Source: Treponema sp.
GTDB taxonomy: Bacteria > Spirochaetota > Spirochaetia > Treponematales > Breznakiellaceae
Length of the DNA stretch: 24,000 bases
Reading direction: 5' to 3'
Assembly: GCA_009784935.1 (NCBI GenBank)
Contig: WQXI01000016.1
Span: forward strand, 442 to 24,441
The notes below the pieces were generated by a model, which worked only from the letters and a program-made list of their open reading frames with translations, made no database searches and was not told the DNA's origin. A program made the position numbers and the translations under genes. Shown here piece by piece: positions 1 through 14,920 of the stretch (position 1 is its first letter; each line of letters opens with the position of its first letter).

Positions 1-154
1 AAATGGTATTATATTAAAATAACCAAAGGGGGTATTATGAGCATGTATAAACAAAACAGTAATATTAATGATCCCCCCCTATTTTTAATTTTAGCAATTA
101 AAAGTAAATTCCAATTCAATTTTTTCTACACGATTCACCAAGGCGAGGTGACAA

Positions 155-629
155 ATGTTTTGTAAATATTGCGGGAAACAATTACCAGATAATAGTAATT
201 TTTGCTCAGGGTGCGGTTATAAGATAATAAACACTAGTAATAACAACACTTATTATTATTTTTGGAATAATAACAAATAAATCTTCCGGAAATTCTAAAT
301 CAACAACAAGAAACGCTTCACCAACATATACAGCTGCAAATTTTGTAGGAACTTGGGATGGAGTAGATGAAGGAACTGGTTTATCGACTGTCTATACTTT
401 TAATAGAGACGGGACTGTTCAGAGTGTATCAATAGATATTACTAACCGAGGCACATATAGAGTTAGCGGAAACACTATTCAGATAACCATGACAGAGGGG
501 TTCACGGGTATTTTATTTCCTGATGGTCAGAGTGTTAGATACAATTTTAGGTTTAATGGTAACGACAGGCTTCAACTTACAACTACTATCTTAGGTATTC
601 GCTTAACAGAGAACCTCATAAAAAGATAA
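155..629 (+). pseudogene. Frameshifted gene for a zinc-ribbon / single-TM / small beta-rich ectodomain protein
   Basis: ATG 155 opens MFCKYCGKQLPDNSNFCSGCGYKII (CxxC..CxxC zinc ribbon) but this frame stops at TAA 278-280. The +1 frame is open from 231 to TAA 627-629. It continues with a hydrophobic helix (LVITTLIIIFGIIT) and a domain FVGTWDG..YTFNRDGT..GTYRVSGNTIQI, yet has no ATG/GTG/TTG before 489. Skipping one base in the A-rich stretch near 227-231 joins the two parts. Confidence 0.45.
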
Positions 630-722
630 ATACAGGTATTACACCACATAGAAGATGTAAAAACCCTGTGCAATCTAGCCTTTAATTAAGCGTTAATTTA
701 TTTTTGCAGGTACTGTCATAAT

Positions 723-1067
723 CTAATTACTTAACCTATAAAGAGCATATTGATTAAGCGAAATGCCTTCTTGCTCTGCTGCTAAAGCAAGTCGGGCATG
801 AAGGCTTTTTGGCAAACGCAAAACGAATTTACCACTGTATTGATTATCTTCTATCGGCTCAGGTATTGAAAAACCGTTTTCCAGTTTTGCTTCAAACCAA
901 CCTTTCATTGCTTCTTGTATATTTTCAAAGGCTTCATTGTAGGTACTGCCATGACTCATACAGCCGTCAAGCTCTCTAACAGTAGCGAAAAAATATGAAC
1001 CCGTCTCATCATTCTTATGCTGTATAACAATATGATAAGGCTTTGAAAGGTACTTCTTTACATTCAT
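723..1067 (-). CDS. hicB: HicB-family antitoxin (type II TA), HicB N-domain plus C-terminal ribbon-helix-helix
   Basis: 114 aa ORF. N-terminal block YHIVIQ..ETGSYFFATVRELDGCMSHGSTYNEAFENIQEA is typical of the HicB fold. C-terminal FVLRLPKSLHARLALAAEQEGISLNQYALYRL is a CopG/Arc-type RHH. The start overlaps the upstream toxin stop at 1067. Confidence 0.8.
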   Translation of the reverse strand: MNVKKYLSKPYHIVIQHKNDETGSYFFATVRELDGCMSHGSTYNEAFENIQEAMKGWFEAKLENGFSIPEPIEDNQYSGKFVLRLPKSLHARLALAAEQEGISLNQYALYRLSN

Positions 1068-1294
1068 TATTTTTCTCCAATTCGTTCCAGTATTGCAGTT
1101 ATATAGGCTTTTTTTATTTGCCCTTTTGCAACAACAGTAATAACATCGCCTGTAGAATTAATATACTGACGATGTGAACTTTCCATGCGTTTGCAACTAT
1201 AGCCGTAATAACGCAATACATAATCAGCTTCTTCAAGGATTATTCCATGAGGCTGGTCTTTCATTTTCTGTAAAAGTTTCTTAATCCTTGCCAT
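1067..1294 (-). CDS. hicA: HicA-like mRNA interferase toxin
   Basis: 75 aa ORF directly upstream of and overlapping hicB. YGYSCKRMESSHRQY and ITVVAKGQIKKAYITAILERI loosely match the HicA/YcfA pattern (G-F/Y..R..GSH..f ... tv...l..gtl..IL). Toxin-first order is typical of hicAB. Confidence 0.6.
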   Translation of the reverse strand: MARIKKLLQKMKDQPHGIILEEADYVLRYYGYSCKRMESSHRQYINSTGDVITVVAKGQIKKAYITAILERIGEK

Positions 1295-1300
1295 ATTCTT

Positions 1301-1330
1301 ATAATACTATATATGATACTATCATGTCAA
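1301..1330 (-). promoter_or_regulatory. Putative hicAB promoter with palindromic operator
   Basis: On the minus strand: TTGACA (1330..1325), 18 nt, TATTAT (1306..1301), 6 nt, ATG (1294). The spacer contains a perfect 13-bp palindrome ATGATAgTATCAT (1313-1325). There is no Shine-Dalgarno sequence. Confidence 0.45.
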
Positions 1331-1368
1331 GTATTTTTTTATACCCGTTTCCCAATTATCTGTGGTTA

Positions 1369-1397
1369 TTGTCAAGATTAATTTAAATTAGTAAGAT
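1369..1397 (+). promoter_or_regulatory. Putative promoter of tRNA-Leu
   Basis: TTGTCA (1369-1374), 17 nt, TAAGAT (1392-1397). The tRNA 5' end lies 14 nt downstream of the -10 box. Confidence 0.35.
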
Positions 1398-1410
1398 ATA
1401 GGGGTATTTC

Positions 1411-1493
1411 GCCGGCGTGGTGGAATGGCAGACACTGGGGACTTAAAATCCCCTCCTAGCAATAGGGTATCAGTTCGAGTCTGATCGCCGGCA
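1411..1493 (+). tRNA. tRNA-Leu, anticodon UAA
   Basis: Manual cloverleaf. Acceptor GCCGGCG/CGCCGGC, D stem GTG/CAC, anticodon stem GGGGA/TCCCC with loop CTTAAAA (anticodon TAA). Long variable arm CCTA-GCAA-TAGG (class II tRNA). T arm ATCAG-TTCGAGT-CTGAT, discriminator A, CCA not encoded. Confidence 0.92.
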
Positions 1494-1525
1494 GTGATAA
1501 TTAGCCTATCAGTAAGGAGCAAACT

Positions 1526-2905
1526 ATGACAAATAAAATCCCTACAAGAATTTACATTTCCGAAGATGAGATGCCTAAATACTGGTATAACCTTAGAGCA
1601 GATATGAAAAATAAGCCCGATCCCATGCTGCACCCCGGCACTTTACAGCCTGTGACTGCCGCAGATTTGGCGCCTGTTTTTTGTAATGCCGTTATAGAAC
1701 AGGAACTTGACGAGACAACAATTAATATTCCCATACCCGAAGAGATTCAGGATTTTTACCGCGCGTACCGTCCGTCAGCACTTATTCGGGCTTATTATCT
1801 CGAAAAGGCGCTGGATACGCCTGCAGAAATTTATTATAAGTTTGAAGGAACAAATACTTCGGGCTCTCATAAACTTAACTCGGCAGGACCGCAGGCTTTT
1901 TACGCAAAAAAAGACGGGCTCACATCGCTTACTACCGAAACCGGCGCAGGACAATGGGGAACAGCAATGTCGATGGCTTGCGCGTTTTACGGTTTAAAAT
2001 TGATCGTATATATGGTAAAAATCAGTTCGGAACAAAAGCCATACCGAAAAGCGCTGATGGAATCATACGGCGCAAACTTGATTGCTTCGCCGTCTAACAC
2101 GACAGAATCAGGCAAAAAAATTCTGGCAGGCGATCCCAACACTGGCGGCTCCCTTGGCTGCGCAATTTCCGAAGCAATAGAAACAGCAGTTAAAACCGAT
2201 AAATGCCGTTATGTGCTTGGAAGCGTTCTTAATCATGTTTTATTGCACCAGACAGTAATCGGCTTAGAAGCAAAAACAGCTTTGGATAAATTCGGCATTA
2301 AACCCGACATAATCATCGGCTGTGCAGGCGGCGGTTCAAACTTGGGCGGTCTTATCGCTCCGTTTATGGGTGACAAGATCGAAGGAAAATCCGATGCTCG
2401 CTTTATCGCAGTCGAACCTGCTTCCTGCCCTTCGTTTACACGTGGCCGTTATGCTTATGACTTTGGTGATACAGCGCAAACTACTCCGCTAATTAGAATG
2501 CAAACCTTGGGAAGCGGTTATATGCCATCGCCTAACCATGCCGGCGGTCTTCGTTACCATGGAATGAATTCAACCCTTGCAAAATTGTTTAAAGACGGTC
2601 TTTTAGAAGCAAGAGCAGAAGTTCAAACTGATGTCTTTGACGCAGCTATTCAATTTATGAAGACAGAAGGTATTCTTCCTGCGCCGGAATCTTCGCATGC
2701 CATAAAAGCGGCGATTGACGAAGCAAATGAATGCAAAAAGACAGGCAAGAAAAAAGTCATTCTTTTTGGATTGAGCGGAACCGGGTTCTTTGATATGACA
2801 GCATATATGTCTTACAATAATAAGACTATGAGCGACCATATTCCAAGCGACGCTGAGCTGGAACGCGGATTTGCTTCAATTCCGGCAATTCCTCAGAACG
2901 GTTAA
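1526..2905 (+). CDS. TrpB2-type tryptophan synthase beta-like PLP-dependent enzyme
   Basis: 459 aa, the length of the TrpB2 class. N-terminal EMPKYWYNLRADM motif, PLP-lysine block GTNTSGSHKLNSA, GCAGGGSN glycine loop. AAGGAG Shine-Dalgarno at 1514-1519. No trpA or other trp genes in the window. Confidence 0.85.
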   Translation: MTNKIPTRIYISEDEMPKYWYNLRADMKNKPDPMLHPGTLQPVTAADLAPVFCNAVIEQELDETTINIPIPEEIQDFYRAYRPSALIRAYYLEKALDTPAEIYYKFEGTNTSGSHKLNSAGPQAFYAKKDGLTSLTTETGAGQWGTAMSMACAFYGLKLIVYMVKISSEQKPYRKALMESYGANLIASPSNTTESGKKILAGDPNTGGSLGCAISEAIETAVKTDKCRYVLGSVLNHVLLHQTVIGLEAKTALDKFGIKPDIIIGCAGGGSNLGGLIAPFMGDKIEGKSDARFIAVEPASCPSFTRGRYAYDFGDTAQTTPLIRMQTLGSGYMPSPNHAGGLRYHGMNSTLAKLFKDGLLEARAEVQTDVFDAAIQFMKTEGILPAPESSHAIKAAIDEANECKKTGKKKVILFGLSGTGFFDMTAYMSYNNKTMSDHIPSDAELERGFASIPAIPQNG

Positions 2906-2918
2906 TAGGTAAATTTCT

Positions 2919-2948
2919 CCCCCATTTCTTCCGATAATGGAATGGGGG
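2919..2948 (+). terminator. Stem-loop after trpB2 (weak intrinsic-terminator candidate)
   Basis: CCCCCATT (2919-2926) pairs with AATGGGGG (2941-2948) across a 14-nt loop, followed by CATATTTT. It overlaps the annotated ATG of the next ORF. Confidence 0.3.
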
Positions 2949-3482
2949 CATATTTTGAAAAAGTTATTAATATTTATTCTTGCAGTTTTGATTGCAACAG
3001 CGCTGACAGCCGCTCTTTATGCAGAAGACGATGTCACAATCAAATTTCATAATTTTACATGGGGTACTACTATCGATTCTTTTAGAGCAAGGATGGGAAA
3101 CCCTGTACATGTAGAAGAAATGAACGGGTTTCAGTCATTGGTTTATGAAAATATACCTATGGCAGGTTATCGCGCATTTATGGTCGTCTATTTTTCACGA
3201 AACGGACTGGAAGGCGGAGCCTATTATTTTGACACCAATAATCTCGAAGAATTAATGATGTGTTATGCCGCTGTCCAAAAAGAGCTTGTAACGTTATTTG
3301 GTCCTACACCGCCTGCGCCTGCAGGACGTTTTGAAGAACTAATGAGAGAAATGCGGCCTTATGAATCTTGCTGGAATTTATCAAGCGGATATGTACATCT
3401 CAAAGTTAATACACGGACAAACGATCCTGTTACATTATGGATTTCCGGTCCTTCTATGACTAAAATGTTTGATGGTTCTTAA
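2937..3482 (+). CDS. Hypothetical secreted protein with N-terminal signal peptide
   Basis: 181 aa ORF with KKLLIFILAVLIATALTAALYA-EDD, a signal-peptide-like N-terminus. The in-frame TTG at 2955, preceded by GGGGG 7 nt upstream, would give the more typical MKKLL start. I recognise no family. Confidence 0.55.
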   Translation: MEWGHILKKLLIFILAVLIATALTAALYAEDDVTIKFHNFTWGTTIDSFRARMGNPVHVEEMNGFQSLVYENIPMAGYRAFMVVYFSRNGLEGGAYYFDTNNLEELMMCYAAVQKELVTLFGPTPPAPAGRFEELMREMRPYESCWNLSSGYVHLKVNTRTNDPVTLWISGPSMTKMFDGS

Positions 3483-3488
3483 AATAAT

Positions 3489-4601
3489 TTAACAGATAGT
3501 TCCGCCGCCGATTACAATATCCCCGTCGTACATTACAACTGCCTGCCCCGGCGTGATTGCGCGCTGGGGTGTATCAAATTCAATGTTAAGATTATTTTCT
3601 CCTGTCTGTTCTGCAGAAGCCCATTGTTCAGCTTGAAGATAGCGCGTTTTTACTTTTACCCGCATGGGCGTTTTTATATTGTCCAGCGCAATTATATTGA
3701 TGTTTTTTGCAGAAAGCGATTTGCTGTACAGAGCTTCATCTTCTGCAAGAGTCACAGTGTTTGCCTCAATTGACTTAGAAACAACATATATCGGAGTGTT
3801 AGCTGCAACTCCAAGCCCCCGCCTCTGGCCTGTGGTATAACGAATAAGACCTTTATGCCTGCCGATAACTTTTCCGTTTATATCGATAATATCGCCATGC
3901 GGATATTCTTTGCCTGTATATTTCTCAATAAAACTGCCGTAATCGCCGTCAGGTATAAAACAAATATCCTGACTCTCTCCCTTGGCGGCGTTTACAAGTT
4001 TTTTTTCTTCTGCAATTTTTCGCACTTGAGTCTTTGTAAGCGATCCCAGCGGGAAGCGGGCTTTTTGCAGCTGCTGCTGGCTAAGGCAGTATAATACATA
4101 GCTTTGATCTTTTTTTTCGTCTATTGCTTTTTGCAGAAGGAATCTGCCGCTTACCGGGTCTTTTGTTACCCGCGCATAATGCCCTGTAACAAAAAAATCG
4201 TAATCTATTTTTTTTAATTGCAGATGGATAGGGTTAAATTTAATATTACGATTGCATTCTATGCATGGGTTTGGAGTTGCTCCGCTTTCGTATGTTCTGA
4301 CAAAATGACGTATGACATGTTCGTCAAATTCTTTTGTAAGATCGAGGGTTAAATGTTCTATGCCAAGATTAAGAGCAGCTGTCTTTGCGTCATTTATATC
4401 CTGCAAAGAAGAGCAGCCAGTTTCTTCGCTGCGGAGTTTAAGAGTTAAGCCTGTACATTCTAAACCCTGCTCAATGCTCAAGGCAGCCGCAACAGTGCTG
4501 TCAACGCCGCCGGACATTGCGCACACTGTGCGGGCGCACACTGTGCGGGCGCACACTGTGCGGGCGCATACTGTGCGAGCGCACACTGCACTACTTAACA
4601 A
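3489..4601 (-). CDS. mnmA: tRNA 2-thiouridine(34) synthase MnmA
   Basis: PP-loop CAMSGGVDSTVAA, catalytic-cysteine block NPCIECNR, and QSYVLY, DICF, TGQRRGLG blocks as in MnmA. The start is uncertain. The ORF opens with TTG at 4601 and reads MLSSAV(CARTV)x4-CAMSGG. Alternative in-frame GTGs lie within the repeats and an ATG lies at 4517. Confidence 0.9.
   Translation of the reverse strand: MLSSAVCARTVCARTVCARTVCARTVCAMSGGVDSTVAAALSIEQGLECTGLTLKLRSEETGCSSLQDINDAKTAALNLGIEHLTLDLTKEFDEHVIRHFVRTYESGATPNPCIECNRNIKFNPIHLQLKKIDYDFFVTGHYARVTKDPVSGRFLLQKAIDEKKDQSYVLYCLSQQQLQKARFPLGSLTKTQVRKIAEEKKLVNAAKGESQDICFIPDGDYGSFIEKYTGKEYPHGDIIDINGKVIGRHKGLIRYTTGQRRGLGVAANTPIYVVSKSIEANTVTLAEDEALYSKSLSAKNINIIALDNIKTPMRVKVKTRYLQAEQWASAEQTGENNLNIEFDTPQRAITPGQAVVMYDGDIVIGGGTIC
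4519..4593. repeat. 15-bp tandem repeat, about 4.7 copies, each unit dyad-symmetric
   Basis: GCGCACACTGTGCGG occurs identically at 4519-4533, 4534-4548 and 4549-4563. Variants follow: GCGCATACTGTGCGA (4564-4578) and GCGCACACTGCACTA (4579-4593). The arms CGCACA/TGTGCG alternate with 1-nt and 2-nt centres. Confidence 0.95.
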
Positions 4602-5472
4602 TGTTCCGCCTGCTCATTAAAAATGAAAGTACTAACCCAACAATAAAACAAACGGCAGAAATTACGATTCCAATGCCTTCGCCGATTCCTTCGGCTTCAC
4701 GATACAAAACAAAAATTGAACCAACAACGAGCCCTAAAACAGCGCCGTATGTTTCTCTTGGAACTTTTGCAAGTAAAAAACGTACAAAGGCTGCGCTTAA
4801 TAAAAGCCCTGCAAGCGCGCCTAAAACAACGGGTATTATTAATGGAACATTTAATTCAGAAACTGCCAGAAGCACTGTGCGGTAAAAGCCAATTACAAGA
4901 AGCATAAACGCGCCGGAAATCCCCGGAATAATCATTGCGATTGCAGCTAACGCGCCTGCCGCGGCTAACATTCCAAATACATGCAGCGTTAATTCTGTAT
5001 AAACTACCGTGCCTTCTTCTGGTTTTACAAATGCAAATACTATCATAACAGCGATTGCAATTACAAAACAAATTACAGAAGGCAAAGACGGCAATGCATC
5101 TTTTTTATCTTGAGAAGTTTCGCTGTTAATGTTAGTTTTAGCACAAACATAAGCTTGCGGGCAAACTTTGGAATATATTAAAGGTATACTGCCTGTGATG
5201 ACTCCGATAAAAAACCAATAAGCGGGAGTGCTGTGGTTCTCCATTAATAAAGAAAAAACTTTGCTAAAGAAAAATATTCCCGCGATTCCTCCGATTACTA
5301 AAGGAAGCCAAAACATCCATGCTTCAAATATCTTTTTTAAATCAGGCACTATTACATTTATAAGACGATCGTAAACGCTGAACACAACTGCCATTGTCGC
5401 AACCGAAAACCCGGGAATAATCGCTGTGATACCGAGAATAAATCCAATGCCTGTTAATTTAATTAGTTCCAT
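4591..5472 (-). CDS. DUF368-family polytopic membrane protein (family linked to polyprenyl-phosphate translocation)
   Basis: 293 aa, highly hydrophobic. It has the duplicated DUF368-like motif IPGFSVATMAVVFSVYDRL and IPGISGAFMLLVIGFYRTV (compare IPGVSGGT). GGAG Shine-Dalgarno upstream of ATG 5472. The stop TAG (4593..4591) lies inside the 15-bp repeat array. Confidence 0.7.
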   Translation of the reverse strand: MELIKLTGIGFILGITAIIPGFSVATMAVVFSVYDRLINVIVPDLKKIFEAWMFWLPLVIGGIAGIFFFSKVFSLLMENHSTPAYWFFIGVITGSIPLIYSKVCPQAYVCAKTNINSETSQDKKDALPSLPSVICFVIAIAVMIVFAFVKPEEGTVVYTELTLHVFGMLAAAGALAAIAMIIPGISGAFMLLVIGFYRTVLLAVSELNVPLIIPVVLGALAGLLLSAAFVRFLLAKVPRETYGAVLGLVVGSIFVLYREAEGIGEGIGIVISAVCFIVGLVLSFLMSRRNIVK

Positions 5473-6386
5473 AATTTCTCCGGATAGATTCCTGCTGTTG
5501 TCATTTCTTCCAGTTTTTTTATTGCAGCTTCTCTGTCTTCTTTGTATGTAACGCCGAACCAGTCAGAATCTGCAGAAAGAACTTTTACATTAATGATTTT
5601 CTGCTTAATAAAATGATCAACGGCTTTGGGAATAAAACATTCGCTTTTTATCTGCCCCGGAATATCCGCAGTAAATGTTTTAAGGTAGTCATCAAAGTAT
5701 TTTTTTAAATGAGGCAGTATATCAGGAGAAAATCCCCAAAAGTTCATTGATACCGGCGTATCAGGAGTTAGTTCACGTATTGAACCATCCGGCGCGGTAT
5801 TAAATATTTTTTCATCTTTTTTTTCTATTGCAGTAAGTTCATCTACGCTGACCAAACAGCCGTTTTTTACTTCGCATACTCCGCGCGCTACAGTTCCCTG
5901 CGGACTAAGCGTTTTTTCCAGCCTGTAAGGCACGATAGAAGATTTGTCTGTATCCGAACCTAAGAGATGTTTGCCCATAACAGCGAATGCTTCTCTTCCG
6001 TAAAAATCATCAGCATTGAGCACAGTAAACGGCGCATCAATTTTATCAGCGGCGCATAGCAAAGCATGCCCTGTGCCCCATGGTTTTGTACGCCCCGCTT
6101 CCTTTGCCGCACTGAAAATATCCGGCGGAATCAAAGTGTCAAGATTTTGAAAAGCTAGTTCGTAATTAACTTTTTTACCCATACGCGCTAGAACAAGCTG
6201 ACTAAAATCTTTTTCGATATCATTACGGATAATAAAAACTATTTTTTCGAACCCGGAATTAACAGCGTCAAATACAGAGTAATCCAAAAGCACTTCGCCG
6301 TTTTTTCCGATTTTATCCATTTGTTTTAATCCGCCGTAACGGCTTCCCATGCCTGCGGCAAGAACTACTAAAATAGGACCTTTCAT
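5463..6386 (-). CDS. Sugar-phosphate nucleotidyltransferase family protein
   Basis: N-terminal LAAGMGSRYGGLKQ matches the NTP-transferase G-x-G-t-R loop. 307 aa. AAGGAG Shine-Dalgarno directly upstream. Overlaps the DUF368 gene start by 10 nt. Substrate unknown. Confidence 0.65.
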   Translation of the reverse strand: MKGPILVVLAAGMGSRYGGLKQMDKIGKNGEVLLDYSVFDAVNSGFEKIVFIIRNDIEKDFSQLVLARMGKKVNYELAFQNLDTLIPPDIFSAAKEAGRTKPWGTGHALLCAADKIDAPFTVLNADDFYGREAFAVMGKHLLGSDTDKSSIVPYRLEKTLSPQGTVARGVCEVKNGCLVSVDELTAIEKKDEKIFNTAPDGSIRELTPDTPVSMNFWGFSPDILPHLKKYFDDYLKTFTADIPGQIKSECFIPKAVDHFIKQKIINVKVLSADSDWFGVTYKEDREAAIKKLEEMTTAGIYPEKLWN

Positions 6387-6388
6387 AT

Positions 6389-6943
6389 TTACTCCTTTGT
6401 ATACGTAATAATAGAAAAATTTTCATAATTTACGGTGTCGGTTTTTTTCCAGCTTTCGTCTATTTTAGGAAAATAAGTATCACCGTCGTAATTTCCGGGG
6501 ATTAATGTAAGAATTATTTTATTTGCATAAGGCATTGCCTGAGTGTAGATTGATTCCCCGCCGCAGATAAATACTTTTTCGTAATTGGCACAAGATTCAA
6601 TGGCGGCATTTAAAGAAGAAAGAATAACCACAGAGGACTGCAACTGAAGTTGCTTGGAGTTACACGGAGTCTTTCGTCCGAAAGCACTATCTTCTCCGTG
6701 AAACTCTGTGTACTCCGTGGTAAAATTCTTATTTTTGGAAATAATTATATTCAATCTTCCGGGCAGAGGTTTAACAGGAAGCGAGTCCCAAGTTTTTCTG
6801 CCCATTATACACGGCCATCCAATAGTAGTCTCTTTAAAGTGCGCGAGGTTTCCTTTTATCGACCACGGCATAGCGTTATCTTTGCCGATAACCTGGTTTT
6901 CTGCCATAGCGGCAATTAAAATTATCTCTTGCTTCTTCTTCAT
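6389..6943 (-). CDS. folA: Dihydrofolate reductase carrying an in-frame repeat-element insertion
   Basis: DHFR blocks IAAMAENQVIGKDNAMPW, IMGRKTWDSLP..PLPGR.NIIIS, FICGGESIY, GDTYFP. At 184 aa it is longer than the roughly 160 aa of typical DHFRs. The extra segment TTEYTEFHGEDSAFGRKTPCNSKQLQLQSSV maps to the repeat at 6628-6720. Confidence 0.85.
   Translation of the reverse strand: MKKKQEIILIAAMAENQVIGKDNAMPWSIKGNLAHFKETTIGWPCIMGRKTWDSLPVKPLPGRLNIIISKNKNFTTEYTEFHGEDSAFGRKTPCNSKQLQLQSSVVILSSLNAAIESCANYEKVFICGGESIYTQAMPYANKIILTLIPGNYDGDTYFPKIDESWKKTDTVNYENFSIITYTKE
6615..6741. repeat. CACGGAG/CTCCGTG palindromic element, copy B (inside folA)
   Basis: The core 6628-6720 (93 bp) runs from CCACAGAGGA to CTCCGTGAAACTCTGTGTACTCCGTGG. 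It is near-identical at both ends to the intergenic copy at 13137-13214. Flank similarity (GAAGAA.. on the left, (A/T)AAATTCTTA..TTGGA on the right) extends to about 6615 and 6741. Confidence 0.8.
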
Positions 6944-6956
6944 CTAAAATCTTCCA

Positions 6957-7020
6957 TTCGTGAAAATACCGTAGGTATTAGTTCGTGCAAGTACCGAAGG
7001 TACTAATTCGTGGTAAAAAT
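6957..7020. repeat. 25-bp tandem repeat (about 2.5 units) in the thyA-folA spacer
   Basis: TTCGTG occurs at 6957, 6982 and 7007, an exact 25-bp period. Units are TTCGTG-aaaaTACCGTAGGTAttag and TTCGTG-caagTACCGAAGGTActaa. Each has a small internal hairpin (GTACC-GAA-GGTAC). The end TTCGTGGTAAAAATT resembles the CTCCGTGGTAAAATT end of the heptamer element. Confidence 0.75.
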
Positions 7021-7029
7021 TTTTAAATA

Positions 7030-7896
7030 TCATACGGCAATCTCAAACTTTATCGCAGGATGAGGATCGTAATTTTCTACGATTGTGTCGTCATAGTGCC
7101 ACTCAAATATCGATGTAAATTTTTCTGTTTTAATTCTAGGAAGCTCTTTTGGCTTTCGCGTTAGCTGCAAACTAATTGCATTAATATGATTTACATAAAT
7201 ATGCACATCACCCAAAAAGCCGATTAATCTGCCTTCGCCCAAGTTTGCTTCTTTTGCCAGCAAGTGTAAAAGACAGCCGTAACTTGCAATATTAAAAGGC
7301 AGCCCCAGCGCGACATCGACCGATCGCTGATTCCAAAGCAGGTTAAGCTTACCGTCAATAACAGTCACCTGAAAACTATAATGGCATGGAGGCAATGCCA
7401 TGCGGTGTAAGTCGCTAGGGTTCCACGCGCTGACAATCATTCGGCGGTCATCGGGATTTGTTTTTAATGTCTGTACAAGTTTTTTTAGCTGATCAACGCC
7501 GCTGCCTTCCGGCGAACTGTTATACGCAGTATATTTTGCACCAAAGTTACGCCATTGCCAGCCATATATAGGACCAAGCTCACGTTCGTTCATCATTTTT
7601 GTTTTTGTTTGTTCGTCATTACCGTACGGAACAACATCGGGGCTGCACCATTCGTCCCATATCGAATTTTTTTGTTCTTTTAGCCATTCTTTGTCGGTAT
7701 ACCCGCGGATAAAAAATTCGAGTTCTGAGCGAACCATGCGGAACGGCACTTTTTTTGTGGTTAAAAGCGGGAAACCCTCAGACATATCATGTTCAAACAT
7801 AGCGCCAGCGATGGAAAGAGCGTCTACGCCGGTACGGTTAGTTTTTCTAAAACCGGTGTCGAGTATTTTTTGTACGATATCAAGATATGCTTTCAT
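7030..7896 (-). CDS. thyA: Thymidylate synthase (ThyA type)
   Basis: 288 aa with ThyA hallmarks: active-site LPPCH, TKK.PF, WNPSD, NQRS.D, and C-terminal ..IAV. Its ATG overlaps the upstream stop as ATGA (7896..7893). Confidence 0.95.
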   Translation of the reverse strand: MKAYLDIVQKILDTGFRKTNRTGVDALSIAGAMFEHDMSEGFPLLTTKKVPFRMVRSELEFFIRGYTDKEWLKEQKNSIWDEWCSPDVVPYGNDEQTKTKMMNERELGPIYGWQWRNFGAKYTAYNSSPEGSGVDQLKKLVQTLKTNPDDRRMIVSAWNPSDLHRMALPPCHYSFQVTVIDGKLNLLWNQRSVDVALGLPFNIASYGCLLHLLAKEANLGEGRLIGFLGDVHIYVNHINAISLQLTRKPKELPRIKTEKFTSIFEWHYDDTIVENYDPHPAIKFEIAV

Positions 7897-8375
7897 ACCT
7901 TTAATGCCTGCGCAGATAAACTACCGTTATGGATTTGTTCTTTTACATAAAAGCCGTAAGTTTTATCATGGATTGCAATATGACTAAAAATCCAGTCTTT
8001 AAGAGTACGGACAAAATGATTGGGTACAAAATGTTTGCCTTCGTTATATTCTTTTGCCGCTTCTAGAATATCCTTAATTAAAATATCATGCATTTTTTTA
8101 TGCTCATTCAGCTGAGGATAATTTATTGTTTTTAGTAGTTTTATTTCGTCATCAAAGTGAAAATGGACATACTCCACCATCTTGTGCATTGCTTCTTTAA
8201 ATACAGTTTGGAGCATATCAGGTTTGGCAATGCAGGCAACATATAATTGATTTGTAAGCTCAACAAGCTTTTTATGCTGAACGTCTATTACTTCGATTCC
8301 TGTTGCATACTTTTCATCCCAAACAACAATTTCTGCCGTTTCCTGCTTTTTTTCCTGCTGGTCATTATTAGTCAT
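7893..8375 (-). CDS. Hemerythrin-like metal-binding domain protein (bacteriohemerythrin)
   Basis: W-DEKYATGIEVIDVQHKKL, HFHFDDEIKLL, EHKKMHD and DWIFSHIAIHDK give the H..HxxxE..H..HxxxxD ligand pattern. The ORF is open to a TTG at 8411, but ATG 8375 (MTNNDQ..) or ATG 8384 are more plausible starts. Confidence 0.8.
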   Translation of the reverse strand: MTNNDQQEKKQETAEIVVWDEKYATGIEVIDVQHKKLVELTNQLYVACIAKPDMLQTVFKEAMHKMVEYVHFHFDDEIKLLKTINYPQLNEHKKMHDILIKDILEAAKEYNEGKHFVPNHFVRTLKDWIFSHIAIHDKTYGFYVKEQIHNGSLSAQALKV

Positions 8376-8382
8376 ATCGAAC

Positions 8383-8411
8383 ATTATACCAAAAAACAGG
8401 AAAAAAGGCAA
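8383..8411 (-). promoter_or_regulatory. Putative promoter of the hemerythrin-thyA-folA unit
   Basis: On the minus strand: TTGCCT (8411..8406), 17 nt, TATAAT (8388..8383), 7 nt, ATG (8375). There is no Shine-Dalgarno sequence. Confidence 0.4.
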
Positions 8412-8441
8412 TTAGACCTTATTTTATAAATATGTTATAAA
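8412..8441 (+). promoter_or_regulatory. Putative promoter of the NUDIX gene; contains a direct repeat
   Basis: TTAGAC (8412-8417), 18 nt, TATAAA (8436-8441), 7 nt, ATG 8449. TTATAAATAT is directly repeated at 8424-8433 and 8435-8444. There is no Shine-Dalgarno sequence. Confidence 0.3.
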
Positions 8442-8448
8442 TATCTCT

Positions 8449-9024
8449 ATGAACAAAACACATTTGGCGTGGGAAGAAACCAGCCGCAAAAAAACATATG
8501 AATGTAAGATATTTTCGATTTCGGAGTCTTATTGCAAATCACCGAGGCAAATAACGAAGGCTGATCCAAAAGCTGAACCGCACACTTTTACTATCATCGA
8601 TACAAAAGATTGGGCTATTGTTATTCCGGTTATCGAAACCCCTGCGGGCAAAAAGTTTTTAATGGTGTGGCAGTGGCGGCATGGCTCGCAATGCCTGAGC
8701 CTAGAGTTTCCAGGCGGTGTTTTTGAACCCGGCGAAAATCCGGAAGAAGCCGCCGCAAGAGAATTATACGAAGAAACAGGATACAAACCGCAAAAGATAA
8801 AAAAGCTTGGGGATTTTAGTCCTAACCCGGCAATGATGTCAAACAAGGTTCACTTTTTTCTTGCCGAGGATCTAATTGATACAGGTAAGCAAGAACTAGA
8901 CGAAGATGAATATGTCGAAATTGAAATAGTCGATGCAGACGAAGTTATAAAAGGAATGGGCAAAGCCCCGTACATTCATTCACTTATGGGAACTGCCCTG
9001 TCGTTGTATTTCCAAGACAAGTAG
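8449..9024 (+). CDS. NUDIX hydrolase (ADP-ribose pyrophosphatase-like)
   Basis: Nudix box GGVFEPGENPEEAAARELYEETGY (G-x5-E-x7-REUxEExGU). 191 aa. Confidence 0.85.
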   Translation: MNKTHLAWEETSRKKTYECKIFSISESYCKSPRQITKADPKAEPHTFTIIDTKDWAIVIPVIETPAGKKFLMVWQWRHGSQCLSLEFPGGVFEPGENPEEAAARELYEETGYKPQKIKKLGDFSPNPAMMSNKVHFFLAEDLIDTGKQELDEDEYVEIEIVDADEVIKGMGKAPYIHSLMGTALSLYFQDK

Positions 9025-9034
9025 AACTCTTATG

Positions 9035-9166
9035 GCGGTTTACGACGTTTTGCAAAGCAAAATGTAAGGCGGCTTTCGCCGCCCGTAAACCGCTGAGATA
9101 GACGACGTTCACGAAGTGTAATGTCGTCTATCGTGTAAGTATGCGACGTTTTAATGTCGCATACTT
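9035..9166. repeat. Three consecutive perfect stem-loops between convergent genes
   Basis: H1: GCGGTTTACG (9035-9044) pairs with CGTAAACCGC (9084-9093) and encloses two inner hairpins (TTTTGC-AAA-GCAAAA; GGCGGC-TTTC-GCCGCC). H2: GATAGACGAC (9097-9106) pairs with GTCGTCTATC (9123-9132). H3: AAGTATGCGAC (9137-9147) pairs with GTCGCATACTT (9156-9166). H2 and H3 share the stem-loop junction CGAC-GTT..AAT-GTCG; H1 has CGACGTT only on its 5' side. No U-tract on either strand. Confidence 0.8.
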
Positions 9167-9170
9167 GTTA

Positions 9171-9866
9171 CTATCTTGGTATTTCCAAAACCATGCCGGG
9201 AAGGATTAAATCAGGATTGTCTGGTTCGGGCATTCTGGATTTGTTGGCTTCATAGAGTTCTCTCCATCTAAAGGGATCTCCATATACCCAAGAATAACCT
9301 GCGATATTCCACAGACAGTCTCTTTCTACTCTCCATGTTCTTACAATATATTGTCTGTTAGAGCCGGTTGCAGTACCAGTGCCAGTCCCCGCTCCTGTTC
9401 CGGTTCCAGTACCAGTTCTTGAAGCCGATGCGGTTCTTCCGGGTTCGAACGCCGCAAATATTTCTATCGAGTTCATTGCAGCTTCGATTGCGTCACCCCA
9501 TTCTTCTTCTGATTGAGCGGCAACAGCTTCTTCGTAATATTCTTTTCCTTGATTAAAATTAATCGGGAACCTGTCTGCTATATTGTTTCTTTCGGCTAAA
9601 TCCATCAAACGTTTTGCTTCTATAATTAACTGTTCGGCAACATATTCGTCAGATAACCCGGCAAAAAGAATTGCTTCATTGGCGAACCCTGCGCTTGCCT
9701 GATAATCGCCGATTTCATACATTTCCTGCGCAAGTTTTGATAAACGAAGGCTTTCGATATAAAACTCATTATTGCTGATTCTTTGATCTACCTGTGCAAA
9801 TGCAGACACTGCAAAAAACAAGGATACAATCACAACTGCAATTATTTTATTGTTAAGATTCCTCAT
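9171..9866 (-). CDS. Secreted LysM-domain (peptidoglycan-binding) protein
   Basis: Signal peptide IIAVVIVSLFFAVSAFA. Helical N-domain, then a Thr/Gly linker (TGTGTGTGAGTGTGTATG). C-terminal LysM-like block YIVRTW..DCLWNIAGY..YGDP..W..LYEAN......PDLILPGMVLEIP. GAAGGAGG Shine-Dalgarno. ATGA overlap with the upstream gene. Confidence 0.8.
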   Translation of the reverse strand: MRNLNNKIIAVVIVSLFFAVSAFAQVDQRISNNEFYIESLRLSKLAQEMYEIGDYQASAGFANEAILFAGLSDEYVAEQLIIEAKRLMDLAERNNIADRFPINFNQGKEYYEEAVAAQSEEEWGDAIEAAMNSIEIFAAFEPGRTASASRTGTGTGTGAGTGTGTATGSNRQYIVRTWRVERDCLWNIAGYSWVYGDPFRWRELYEANKSRMPEPDNPDLILPGMVLEIPR

Positions 9867-10846
9867 CTTACGCCTCCTTCAATTAATCTTTCTGCTTCTT
9901 GAGCGGCTCCGCTGCTTTCTTCGATTTTTTCACCTGCAAGCCTGATAGCTTCTTCCGCTCTAACGCGCCTTTCTTCGGTTTCTTTTCTGGAGATTGCATA
10001 AATCGCTTCTGCTTCTACAAAAGTAATTCCGGCAACATTAAAGTTTTCGGCTCTAAAGTTTTCTTCTGCTCTGCCAAAAATAGCTTCTCCCTCGCGGAAA
10101 GTATCGCGGGAAGCAATGTTTGCTCTTTCTGATACAGCAAGTTCTCTTTCTGAAACAGCGGCTGTTCTGCGTTCTCTCGCGTACACTGTCCAACCGTTAG
10201 AAAGTACAATATTGTAACGAAGAAGAGCTTCTTCTGCGCCGGCTAAAGCTCCCTCTTTATCGCCTTTTTCGTATGCTTCGATTGCTGTCTGGGCAACGCT
10301 GTCGGCTCTGGTAAAATTGTCAGCGTCATATTGCGTAAATCCGCGATCGATGATTTCTTGTCTTGCCAAAAATACATTAGCGCCCATTTCAAGAGTTTCG
10401 TATTCTTCCAATGCCTCAAATGCGGTATCTCTTGCTTTGTAATAATCCTCTGCATCATACTGCTCTTTTGCGGCAAGCGCGAGATCATCTGCTTTTTTTA
10501 AGTATTCCGGGAAAACTTCGGTAAATCCTGTATGTATCAGCTGTTCCCTCGCGGCGAGAATTTCATCTTCTATTGCCTGAGCGTAAAGCGGAACTGTTTT
10601 CTTAAAAAGTTCGTCATAGGCATCTGCAGCAATGCTGTATTCGGCAGCACTGTTGGCTGCTTCGTACAGGGTTTCCAGAGTTTCCCATTCGCTGGGAAAA
10701 TAAGCCGGAACTTCAAAGTCAATTGCCCTCTGTCTGGCTTCCTTTGCCCTGTCTTCTTCGACTTTTGCGCCTGTGGTATTACATGAAACGCCTAAAAATG
10801 CAACCAATGCTATTGTTAATAGAATAAAAAAGCTGTTTTTCTTCAT
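9863..10846 (-). CDS. Helical-repeat lipoprotein (Ala/Glu-rich)
   Basis: The start is placed at ATG 10846 (MKKNSFFILLTIALVAFLGVSC; lipobox LGVSC) with AAGGAGGGG directly upstream. The longer ORF to 10960 has no signal peptide or ribosome-binding site. About 4 internal repeats of the type AR..(I)I..GF......F..A......A.E.Y. Confidence 0.7.
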   Translation of the reverse strand: MKKNSFFILLTIALVAFLGVSCNTTGAKVEEDRAKEARQRAIDFEVPAYFPSEWETLETLYEAANSAAEYSIAADAYDELFKKTVPLYAQAIEDEILAAREQLIHTGFTEVFPEYLKKADDLALAAKEQYDAEDYYKARDTAFEALEEYETLEMGANVFLARQEIIDRGFTQYDADNFTRADSVAQTAIEAYEKGDKEGALAGAEEALLRYNIVLSNGWTVYARERRTAAVSERELAVSERANIASRDTFREGEAIFGRAEENFRAENFNVAGITFVEAEAIYAISRKETEERRVRAEEAIRLAGEKIEESSGAAQEAERLIEGGVR

Positions 10847-10910
10847 TAACCCCTCCTTATCGGGAATAAAAGCAGTATACACGATTTTGAATTTTTGGTA
10901 AAGAGTTTCT

Positions 10911-11144
10911 ATGGATAAAATAAGTTTCGAAATAACCAAACATTTTGGTGTAATTTCCAAAGAAAAGAGCGGATGGCAGAAGGAATTGAACCTTGTGTCG
11001 TGGAACGGCAGGGCTCCAAAGCTCGATATCAGGGACTGGGCGCCGGATCATGAAAAAATGGGCAAAGGCGTGACTCTTACAGAGGGCGAAGCGGCGGCTC
11101 TGGCAGAACTGCTGGTTTTTGCCCTCGCCAAAGAGGGGAATTGA
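10911..11144 (+). CDS. YdbC/PC4-like small ssDNA-binding family protein
   Basis: 77 aa. GVIS..KSGWQKELNLVSWNGRAPKLDIRDWAPDHEKMGKGVTLT.EEA..L matches my memory of the YdbC (PC4-like) family signature. Not verifiable here. Confidence 0.55.
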   Translation: MDKISFEITKHFGVISKEKSGWQKELNLVSWNGRAPKLDIRDWAPDHEKMGKGVTLTEGEAAALAELLVFALAKEGN

Positions 11145-11156
11145 TAAAAGAAGAGT

Positions 11157-11263
11157 TCACACGGAGACGCAGTGACACGGAGGACACGGAGCGAATTCTA
11201 AGGTTTTTACTTTTCCTTACCTTATTCTTTGTGATCTCCGTGCCTTTGTGCCTTTGTGTGAGG
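11157..11263. repeat. CACGGAG/CTCCGTG palindromic element, degenerate copy C (upstream of groL)
   Basis: Left arm TTCACACGGAGACGCAGTGACACGGAGGACACGGAG (11157-11192). Right arm CTCCGTGCCTTTGTGCCTTTGTGTGAG (11237-11263). Same heptamer words, imperfect inverted symmetry. Confidence 0.55.
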
Positions 11264-11361
11264 GAATTTACATAAAATAGCTATTGAAGAAAACGAGCGA
11301 ATTTGATAGCTTTATATCTGGGTTCTGATTTGAGCCCAAAATCAATTAATTTCAACCTTAA

Positions 11362-13020
<1,659 letters not shown>

Positions 13021-13121
13021 GCGAACTGTGTTGAAGAGCCTCACACGGGTCTTGCAGCGAAGCTTCTAGCAGGCACAGAGACACAAAGTTTTAATTTAGG
13101 TTTTAAGATTAGGAGCTGTCC

Positions 13122-13235
13122 GAGAAGAATTAGAGACCACAGAGGACACGGAGTAACACAGAGGTTTTTGTTCGAAAATCTTACGCTCTCCGTGAAACTC
13201 CGTGTACTCCGTGGTTAAATTCTTACTTATTGGAC
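13122..13235. repeat. CACGGAG/CTCCGTG palindromic element, copy A (groL-murJ spacer)
   Basis: Left arm CCACAGAGGACACGGAGTAACACAGAGG (13137-13164). Right arm CTCTCCGTGAAACTCCGTGTACTCCGTGG (13186-13214). The arms are imperfect reverse complements. Each arm has 3 heptamers spaced 9-10 bp apart. The outer inverted flank is AAGAATT..CCAC paired with GGTTAAATTCTTA. Confidence 0.85.
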
Positions 13236-13255
13236 ATCTCCTTTTTTTTGGTATG

Positions 13256-13282
13256 TTGAAAGTAACGTCATAAAAGTATACT
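13256..13282 (+). promoter_or_regulatory. Putative murJ promoter
   Basis: TTGAAA (13256-13261), 15 nt, TATACT (13277-13282), 6 nt, ATG 13289. The spacer is short. There is no Shine-Dalgarno sequence. Confidence 0.25.
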
Positions 13283-13288
13283 CTTTGA

Positions 13289-14920
13289 ATGACCATGGAA
13301 AAACAAGACGCCGTCGCTCAATCAATTAATACTCCGCAAACAGTAACGCAGACTGCGAAAACACTTGTCCGCCATGGAACTGTATTGTCTCTTTTAACGC
13401 TGATCTCCCGCGTTCTTGGTCTTCTTAGGGAAATGGTAAAAGCAAGGTTTCTTGGCACTACTGCCCTGTCCGATGCTTTTTCTGTGGCGTTCCTTTTACC
13501 CAATTTGTTCCGCCGTCTTTTTGCAGAAGGTTCTATCTCGGTTGCTTTTATTCCTACTTTTAAAGAACATTTACTGGAAGCTAATAAAGAAAAAACACGC
13601 GAGTTTTTATCATCTATGTTCACCTTTCTTACATTTTTTGTAACGCTTGCTGTTTGCGCCGGTATACTTGCCGCTCCTTTGCTTGTTCGCATTTTTGGAA
13701 TAGAAGAATTTGACGAAACAGTTTTTTTAACAAGAATAATGTTTCCGTTTCTTGGATTTATTTCGCTTGCGGCATTGTTTCAGGGTGTATTAAACAGCCT
13801 GCATATTTTTACGCCATCGGGGCTTGCGCCGATTCTGTTAAACATTGTTACCATTATCGCAGCTTATGTTTTAAGTCCTTACACCGCAAACCCAGCGCGG
13901 GCGATGGCGATTGGAATTCTAGTCGGTGGTTTTTTGGAAGCGGCGATTCAACTGCCGTTTGTATTAAAAAAAGGACAAACATTTTTTATAACAGGATTAA
14001 AACGCGCGTTTAGCAATCCCGGCGTAAAAAAAGTTTTACTGCTTATAGCTCCAACGATTATCGGAATGGCAGCTTATCAAATAAATGATTTGGTTTCTAC
14101 TGCGCTGGCAGGAAGAGCGGGCGAAGGTGTTGTATCCAGCTTGCAGTATTCTCTGCGGCTGCAGGAATTGTTTCTTGGCGTGTTTGCGGTTTCTATAGGG
14201 ACAGTGCTTCTGCCGAATCTTACCGAATACGCAAAAACTTCTCAGTGGGATATTTATAATAAACGGCTGGTTTCTTCCATTAATATTATTGCATTGATAA
14301 CGATTCCAGTTACTTTCTTTTCATTAATGGAAGGACAGAATTTAATCCGCCTTCTTTTTCAGAGTCATAGCTTTGATGAAACTTCGGTTACTCTTACTCT
14401 GGCGGCATTTACATTTCATATGCCGGGGCTTTTGTTTATCGCGCTTAACAGAATTATCGCGCCTGCATTTTATGCGCAAAGTGATACAAAATCACCGACT
14501 ATTGCGGGGATAATTTCTTTTGCCGTGAATATTACCCTTGCCGCTGTATTGGTAGGACCGTACCGGGGAGCGGGAATTGCGTTTGCGCTTACTATTGCTA
14601 GCGCGATAAATACAATTGCGCTTCTTGTTATGCTTGGCAAAAATCCCAATATTGACTTAAAAGCCGTTATAACTCCATCATTATTGTATATAATTAAAAT
14701 GGTTATTCTGTCTGCGCTTGCAATTGTTCCGTTATATTTTATTTCGCCGGTGTTACGCGAAGTTTTTACAGGACACAGCCGTATAATAACGCATGGAGCG
14801 CCGTTAATTATAAATGCTTTTATTTATTTTATTCTTGGAATAACAATGCTTGCGATTGTAAAAGATAAAAATTTATTGGGCTTGCTCGATATGATCAAAA
14901 AGAAAAAGGAAGTACAATGA
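13289..14920 (+). CDS. murJ: Lipid II flippase MurJ (MviN)
   Basis: 543 aa polytopic protein. N-terminal RVLGLLREMVKARFLGTTALSDAFSVAFLLPNLFRRLFAEGSISVAFIPTF is the conserved MurJ signature. Confidence 0.9.
   Translation: MTMEKQDAVAQSINTPQTVTQTAKTLVRHGTVLSLLTLISRVLGLLREMVKARFLGTTALSDAFSVAFLLPNLFRRLFAEGSISVAFIPTFKEHLLEANKEKTREFLSSMFTFLTFFVTLAVCAGILAAPLLVRIFGIEEFDETVFLTRIMFPFLGFISLAALFQGVLNSLHIFTPSGLAPILLNIVTIIAAYVLSPYTANPARAMAIGILVGGFLEAAIQLPFVLKKGQTFFITGLKRAFSNPGVKKVLLLIAPTIIGMAAYQINDLVSTALAGRAGEGVVSSLQYSLRLQELFLGVFAVSIGTVLLPNLTEYAKTSQWDIYNKRLVSSINIIALITIPVTFFSLMEGQNLIRLLFQSHSFDETSVTLTLAAFTFHMPGLLFIALNRIIAPAFYAQSDTKSPTIAGIISFAVNITLAAVLVGPYRGAGIAFALTIASAINTIALLVMLGKNPNIDLKAVITPSLLYIIKMVILSALAIVPLYFISPVLREVFTGHSRIITHGAPLIINAFIYFILGITMLAIVKDKNLLGLLDMIKKKKEVQ

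Follow-up and report, generated by a model that had tools for sequence, protein, structure and literature searches.

The tRNA 2-thiouridine(34) synthase gene mnmA of a Treponema sp. (GenBank assembly GCA_009784935.1, contig WQXI01000016.1, positions 442 to 24,441 of the forward strand) carries at its 5' end a 15-bp tandem repeat whose copy number differs between two assemblies of the species. Here, we report an analysis of this array in the 24,000-nucleotide stretch named above (the window, in whose numbering all coordinates are given unless stated otherwise). Taken as a whole, our reading is that the array is probably a young, copy-variable, in-frame minisatellite, which has grown out of the codons for strand beta1 of MnmA and would be translated from a TTG start codon as a tolerated N-terminal tail.

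A first-pass annotation, made from the letters of the window, had described a dyad-symmetric 15-bp tandem repeat at the junction of mnmA with the DUF368 gene upstream, and the repeat is real by both Tandem Repeats Finder (TRF) and direct reading of the sequence (unit GCGCACACTGTGCGG, period 15, 4.7 head-to-tail copies, 94% matches, score 126; Table 1). Each unit consists of an arm CGCACA, 1 base, an arm TGTGCG, and 2 bases; since the arms are reverse complements, the array is almost identical to its own reverse complement. The annotation had counted three identical and two diverged units. The three identical ones stand, and the remainder resolves into a unit that carries two substitutions, neither of which alters the residue encoded in the mnmA frame, and a 10-base partial unit. 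An in-frame GTG, reported for every unit, occurs in four of five, the other having GTA. The period is a multiple of 3, as noted at first, and the open reading frame (ORF) continues across the array, but the DUF368 stop codon, which had been placed inside the fifth unit, lies 3 bases outside the array, which ends at 4588. The G+C content of the array region is 61-65%, versus 39.7% for the genome. Throughout the draft genome (2.37 Mb, 68 contigs), the 15-mer occurs three times, always at the mnmA array (reversed control pattern, 0), so that the suggested check for the same 15-mer in other genes turned up none, and the 13-bp palindromic core of the unit has no copy outside the array.

The junction was compared in the closest relatives (MnmA identity, 84-85% and 79%) and across the rest of the gene-carrying genomes in the genus (~33). 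The closest by database match are Treponema sp. metagenome-assembled genomes, several of which come from one JGI metagenome (3300010049). Copy number is graded among them: locus L035 has no repeat (TTG-HKTVCAMSGG), L037 has one copy (...ISARTVCAMSGG, SARTVCAMSGG), L036 has 1.6 copies (TTG-DKIVCARTVCAMSGG, VCARTVCAMSGG), and this genome has 4.6 to 4.7 (MLSSA(VCART)x4VCAMSGG). The R-T-V-C codons CGC ACA GTG TGC are found once in L037 and 1.6 times in L036, where the DNA GTA TGT GCT CGC ACA GTG TGC GCC matches the first 1.6 units of the array codon by codon; the older, changed unit of the array has its codons in common with this proto-repeat. By the codon-for-codon match, the palindrome CGCACAGTGTGCG is the ancestral R-T-V-C coding sequence, and the graded series shows the array to be an expansion of the beta1 codons, in agreement with the earlier proposal that it expanded from the codons of the true N terminus. 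In a tree of MnmA plus DUF368, this genome and L036 group together (82/88) within a clade of five lineages (100/98). Apart from one genome discussed below (G044, locus L034), none of the other gene-carrying genomes has a repeat at the mnmA junction, and no repetitive N terminus occurs among 14 long MnmA homologues.

The ancestor would have held the 13-base palindrome, encoding R-T-V-C of beta1, together with a GTRTGYGC direct repeat whose two copies are spaced 15 bases apart, a state that persists in L036. Slippage in replication, or unequal exchange, between these direct repeats would then have added three 15-base units, probably aided by the hairpin-forming arms, and units would still be gained and lost today. 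We infer this mechanism of expansion, whereas the derivation from beta1 codons can be followed through the relatives themselves.

Copy number varies within the species. A second assembly (locus L071; ENA ERZ27264051, contig k141_11935) shares 99.76% identity with window 1-14609, and its MnmA (P0121, 365 amino acids [aa], the second member of the 90%-identity cluster of the window protein's database copy) starts MLSSA(VCART)x3VCAMSGG, exactly one 15-bp unit fewer. This comparison, which had been recommended because strain variation was suspected, thus bore the suspicion out. The 3-unit allele is likewise open and in frame; it keeps both of the older, diverged units and lacks one of the identical ones. 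Over 14,609 bp, the two sequences differ by 12 single-nucleotide polymorphisms (SNPs) and only two indels, one being the mnmA unit and the other an 8-bp unit of a perfect tandem repeat at 11240-11258. These are the only two arrays that vary among the 13 detected by TRF in the shared 14.6 kb, and both (94% and 100% matches) rank within the best-matching three. Exact-protein look-ups and one metagenome pattern scan returned just this one further assembly of the species; all else was known relatives and six unrelated chance 20-mer matches.

An assembly artefact, in the array or in its copy number, is extremely unlikely. The genome is a 68-contig draft, tandem repeats are known to cause assembly errors, and the two assemblies do disagree on copy number; however, at 70 bp the array fits within an ordinary short read and within the 141-mers of the L071 assembly, so that single reads should span each version, and two assemblers agree on the diverged 5' units, each giving 3.7 copies or more. 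The contigs also differ by the 12 SNPs and by the 8-bp indel, which sits in a 19-bp repeat too short to collapse. The array and repeat lengths argue for two real haplotypes.

The full ORF opens at TTG 4601, as first described, and reads MLSSAVCARTVCARTVCARTVCARTVCAMSGGVDS, giving a product that starts MLSSA-(VCART)x4-VCAMSGGVDS. In all five lineages of the clade, a TTG with AGGCGGAA ahead of it overlaps the last DUF368 codons, and in L005, L006, L035, and L047, TTG is the sole canonical start that includes beta1. In the NCBI/ENA gene calls, both the sister species and the second assembly have mnmA starting at the TTG, and other database entries of the clade use the likely TTG start. The Shine-Dalgarno-like hexamer AGGCGG upstream doubles as two Arg codons of DUF368, and its conservation therefore adds no independent support. 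All substitutions in the array and proto-repeat are synonymous third-position changes (5/5, 2 among the units here and 3 relative to L036), for which the chance is ~(1/3)^5 = 0.004 if positions are random. Both the VCART array and the AGLHA array of the sister species (below) have a period divisible by 3 and no stop codon. The conserved TTG and the synonymous-only substitutions make it most likely that the array is translated from TTG 4601. Translation would begin within the end of the DUF368 gene, coupling mnmA to DUF368, and the array would add ~20 residues, (VCART)n, as a floppy tail before a normal MnmA.

Alternatively, the array could be untranslated, with MnmA made from an in-array GTG (e.g., V21, MCARTVCAMSGG) or from ATG 4517, and could serve as a structured DUF368-mnmA spacer whose hairpins set the coupling. 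We hold this to be unlikely, though far from negligible. Four in-frame GTGs lie inside the array, a start at V21 would give the tail length of most relatives, the database gene call uses the ATG, and the RNA is very stable (-53 kcal/mol for 116 nucleotides [nt], z=-3.5 versus shuffles, each extra unit contributing about -11 kcal/mol), in keeping with the mRNA hairpins that the first-pass annotation had envisaged for the arms. Yet the beta1 Val codon is GTA, a non-start, in L035, L007, and L014, so the GTG is not a conserved start, and neither the in-array GTGs nor the ATG have a purine-rich motif ahead of them, in contrast to neighbouring genes of the operon, which have AAGGAG or GGAG. By prediction, opening the TTG region would cost much the same whatever the copy number (10.4 kcal/mol at 0 units, 11.8-14.1 at 1-7 units), and the array of the sister species shows no excess of structure over shuffles (z=-0.07). 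The substitution pattern and the in-frame period of both arrays, set out above, also count against it. Finally, an ATG start would delete beta1, as had been noted at the outset: the Pfam HUP domain begins at residue 24, the alignment with Escherichia coli MnmA (2DER) at residue 23, and the AlphaFold2 strand spans residues 24-28. In every relative, the frame stays open through the five residues ahead of the MSGG ATG, and these residues are conserved, which probably makes ATG 4517 a mis-called start. Automatic calls P0001, P0003, P0004, and P0008 (342-345 aa) open mnmA at the MSGGVDS ATG and so remove beta1.

Given the near-constant opening energy, copy number should hardly alter initiation, and its use as an initiation rheostat, which was considered, is unsupported; coupling to DUF368 is in any event the probable determinant of initiation. 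No Rfam match was found at E<=1 in window 4300-4800, nor any terminator-like or promoter-like site at the array. The first-pass annotation had left two effects side by side, one on the N-terminal length of the enzyme and one on start-codon choice or RNA structure; the comparative evidence appears to favour the effect on MnmA length.

By domain architecture, PP-loop, and catalytic cysteines, the mnmA product is MnmA, and thiolation of U34 in tRNA Lys, Glu, and Gln is predicted. Three Pfam domains (PF03054, E=4.6e-66; PF20259, E=2.4e-19; PF20258, E=2.2e-20) correspond to the PP-loop HUP domain, the PRC-barrel, and the C-terminal beta-barrel, and 2DER aligns to residues 23-369 in a PDB search. 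C113, C116, and C214 are invariant among 21 homologues, and SGGVDS and the cysteines line up with the PNPD/CxxCN and ICF motifs known from solved structures of MnmA. Pfam, PDB, and AlphaFold2 agree in placing native beta1 in the last unit only, which leaves ~20 residues as extra. AlphaFold2 (21-sequence alignment) models these as a disordered tail before an intact MnmA: residues 1-20 have a predicted local distance difference test (pLDDT) score of 30-35 and no secondary structure, and the core is ordinary (mean pLDDT, 73). Non-repetitive N-tails of up to ~24 residues occur in MnmA homologues, so a tail of this length is tolerated in the family. The pentapeptide-repeat profile (A(D/N)LXX) has no Pfam match in the 370-aa protein, the tail being modelled as disordered and having only 4-5 units.

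The repeat tail might also be adaptive as a protein, either as a Cys-rich arm for persulfide sulfur or Fe-S loading or through a copy number that tunes enzyme level or stability. Each unit supplies one Cys directly before the PP-loop strand, and the occurrence of an array at this position in a second species may suggest that an extension has been selected more than once. Residues 113-116 (window 4253-4264, PNPCIECN) form Cys-x-x-Cys, versus Asp-x-x-Cys in E. coli MnmA, and this arrangement together with C214 marks the Fe-S-cluster-dependent MnmA type. We nonetheless regard an adaptive tail as very unlikely. The unit of the second species, AGLHA, lacks Cys and leaves no protein-level feature in common; the tail is predicted to be disordered; close relatives manage without any repeat; and the three identical units and current polymorphism indicate very recent turnover at the DNA level. 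The unit also contains GTG (9% of Val) and GCC (15% of Ala), which are the rarest codons of their families in this genome, and rare codons fit a DNA-level accident better than a selected peptide. The repeat tail is probably tolerated rather than useful, and we infer that the repeat is probably near-neutral.

A different array occupies the same codon of mnmA in the sister species (L034; NCBI MCL2440125.1, JGI contig Ga0123356_10000102, genome G044; L034:3013-3060, also L063, G044:C1:16040-16084). Three copies of an unrelated 15-bp unit, GCAGCGGGCTTGCAC, encode AGLHA-AGLHA-TGLHV, a peptide without Cys. The upstream 41 nt are identical to the window and the downstream flank nearly so, with an overall nucleotide identity of only ~75%, and deletion of either array leaves the same MLSSAVCAMSGG. 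Homology of the two units was rejected (best rotation/strand, 9/15 matches, p=0.31; gapped local alignment, p=0.56), as was an RNA structure common to both arrays, given their z values of -0.07 and -3.5. The L034 unit has no other copy in its own genome and no source in its own locus. The two arrays thus share site, period, and frame only. Two histories would fit, a mutationally prone site or the complete turnover of an old array; the MnmA-plus-DUF368 tree, which does not settle whether this genome and L034 are sisters, does not separate these. That the first codons of mnmA are a hot spot for unrelated in-frame 15-nt arrays in this Treponema clade is a distinctly unlikely proposition, for which two causes are possible: a hairpin-driven duplication that makes 15-17-bp palindromic arrays at gene boundaries genome-wide, or selection for a longer spacer from the overlapped stop/TTG to the essential beta1, tuning translational coupling.

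Tandem arrays elsewhere bear on a further explanation, namely, that the units serve as a row of operators bound by a dimeric DNA-binding protein, or that they are copies of a palindromic element dispersed in the genome. Within every unit, two arms form a palindrome (6+6), and the genome has other palindromic-unit arrays with periods of 15-17 bp, some of them intergenic. Whole-genome TRF gave 218 rows, among which 15 is the commonest period (31 rows), and the unit contains a stem of 5 bp or more in 11/28 arrays of period 15-17 versus 6/45 of other periods between 9 and 23. Against an operator or dispersed element stand the origin of the palindrome as ancestral R-T-V-C coding sequence, the confinement of the unit to one locus, the lack of promoter-like or terminator-like sites and of Rfam matches at the array, and its position inside an operon, at a gene overlap; this explanation is scarcely credible. 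The period 15-17 class itself is heterogeneous. Many of its arrays sit at gene starts, gene ends, or in intergenic regions, with mutually unrelated sequences, and some look like tandem operators. Examples in this genome (G000) are C19:25315-25363, C21:14540-14582, C4:13294-13339, C36:12101-12156, and C15:10179-10221. At G000 C23:29647-29675 (minus strand), a 262-codon open frame begins MMDHQ-MMEHH, a 15-bp tandem duplication that includes ATG start codons.

Several points weigh against a young, translated, and tolerated minisatellite. The database gene call for the window genome starts at ATG 4517, AGGCGG is only a partial Shine-Dalgarno match, and the TTG lies within predicted RNA structure that would take 10-14 kcal/mol to open. 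L071 and the window may share a sample or come from sister samples; they are two haplotypes rather than a strain survey. The five extra cysteines beside a cysteine-/persulfide-dependent active site might be non-neutral, and the unrelated L034 array at the same codon is poorly explained by pure neutral chance.

Table 1. Features of the DUF368-mnmA junction in window coordinates
Feature	Position	Strand	Remarks
15-bp tandem array	4519..4588	-	mnmA frame, (VCART)x4 then VCA; by TRF and sequence; unique in genome
Three identical units	4519..4563	-	Youngest part; second assembly lacks one
Older unit with two changes	4564..4578	-	GTA for GTG, GCT for GCC; both synonymous in mnmA frame
Partial unit, 10 bases	4579-4588	-	By sequence
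Native beta1 strand codons R24-A28 (RTVCA)	4518..4532	-	Formed by last unit; Pfam from residue 24, PDB from 23, AlphaFold2 strand 24-28
TTG, most likely mnmA start	4599..4601	-	11 nt inside DUF368 end; same position relative to DUF368 stop in five closest lineages
AGGCGG, Shine-Dalgarno-like hexamer	4606..4611	-	4 nt before TTG; kept in L034-L037
ATG (M29)	4515..4517	-	Start in database gene call (P0001, 342 aa)
PP-loop SGGVDS (S30-S35) of MnmA	4497..4514	-	Invariant in 21 homologues
mnmA, tRNA 2-thiouridine(34) synthase	3489..4601	-	370 aa from TTG; three MnmA Pfam domains; PDB MnmA, E=3.6e-69
DUF368/VCA0040-like membrane protein gene, upstream	4591..5472	-	By Pfam; overlaps mnmA start
TAG stop of DUF368 gene	4591..4593	-	

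The DUF368-mnmA gene order is also found in L034-L037, L007, and L014. Two other places in the comparison with L071 are recorded here. The perfect 8-bp repeat at 11240-11258 (GTGCCTTT x2.4) lies in a spacer ~120 nt upstream of groEL, with one unit fewer in L071. In murJ, 11 of the 12 SNPs cluster within 154 bp (14194-14347), where local divergence is ~7% versus <0.01% elsewhere; this cluster has the appearance of a patch acquired by recombination or of a chimera joined from co-existing strains.

The array is a clean natural case in which the codons of a core structural element, strand beta1 in a PP-loop enzyme, have grown into a polymorphic repeat while the enzyme stays intact. It also bears on annotation, in that automatic calling cuts mnmA short and several database entries start at the internal ATG, without beta1. 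The array is a possible strain marker for uncultured termite-gut-type Treponema, and the L034 array together with the excess of palindromic 15-17-bp arrays hints at a mutational process driven by sequence context. Nothing suggests a new molecular system in the array, and a literature search found nothing on MnmA N-terminal repeats, nor any paper in which metagenome 3300010049 is named.

Bacterial coding variable-number tandem repeats (VNTRs) include the 24-bp repeats of the spa X region in Staphylococcus aureus and the 60-bp arp repeats of Treponema pallidum. The array resembles them in its head-to-tail units, a length that is a multiple of 3, a frame that is kept, a copy number that varies between close strains, and youngest units that are identical, as well as in a presumed origin by slippage or unequal exchange. 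The spa and arp repeats, however, belong to surface or antigenic proteins, in which variation in length is presumably under selection, whereas the present array is at the extreme N terminus of a tRNA-modification enzyme with a housekeeping role in the cytoplasm, repeats the codons of a core beta strand, and has a unit that is itself a palindrome. Hairpin- and quasipalindrome-associated slippage and template-switch mutagenesis have reportedly been described by Ripley and by Lovett and colleagues; like the classic substrate of that process, the unit is a short, perfect palindrome with short direct repeats on its flanks, which would explain why this coding piece expanded. That literature deals mostly with point changes, deletions, and single duplications in E. 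coli reporters, and is not known to cover a natural multi-copy array at the start of a gene.

Phase-variable contingency loci of Neisseria and Haemophilus likewise have repeats prone to slippage, located at gene 5' ends, with copy number varying in populations (PMC4085013). Their units of 1-7 nt shift the frame and switch the gene on or off, whereas the 15-nt unit keeps mnmA in frame at every copy number, so that an on/off switch is impossible. A contingency locus was rejected on these grounds, both alleles being in frame and no promoter-like site being present at the array. Rickettsia palindromic elements (RPEs) offer a likeness in that palindromic DNA lies in frame in a housekeeping gene and yields a tolerated, disordered peptide, but RPE-like elements are dispersed, ~100 bp long, and mobile, whereas the 15-bp unit was formed out of codons of mnmA itself and has no copies at other loci of the genome. 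A dispersed palindromic repeat (like repetitive extragenic palindromes, miniature inverted-repeat transposable elements, or RPEs) was likewise rejected, the unit and its 13-bp core being found at one locus only and the sister unit only at its own mnmA. From its sequence features, the array would be an ordinary coding VNTR, unusual only in having a housekeeping enzyme as its host gene.

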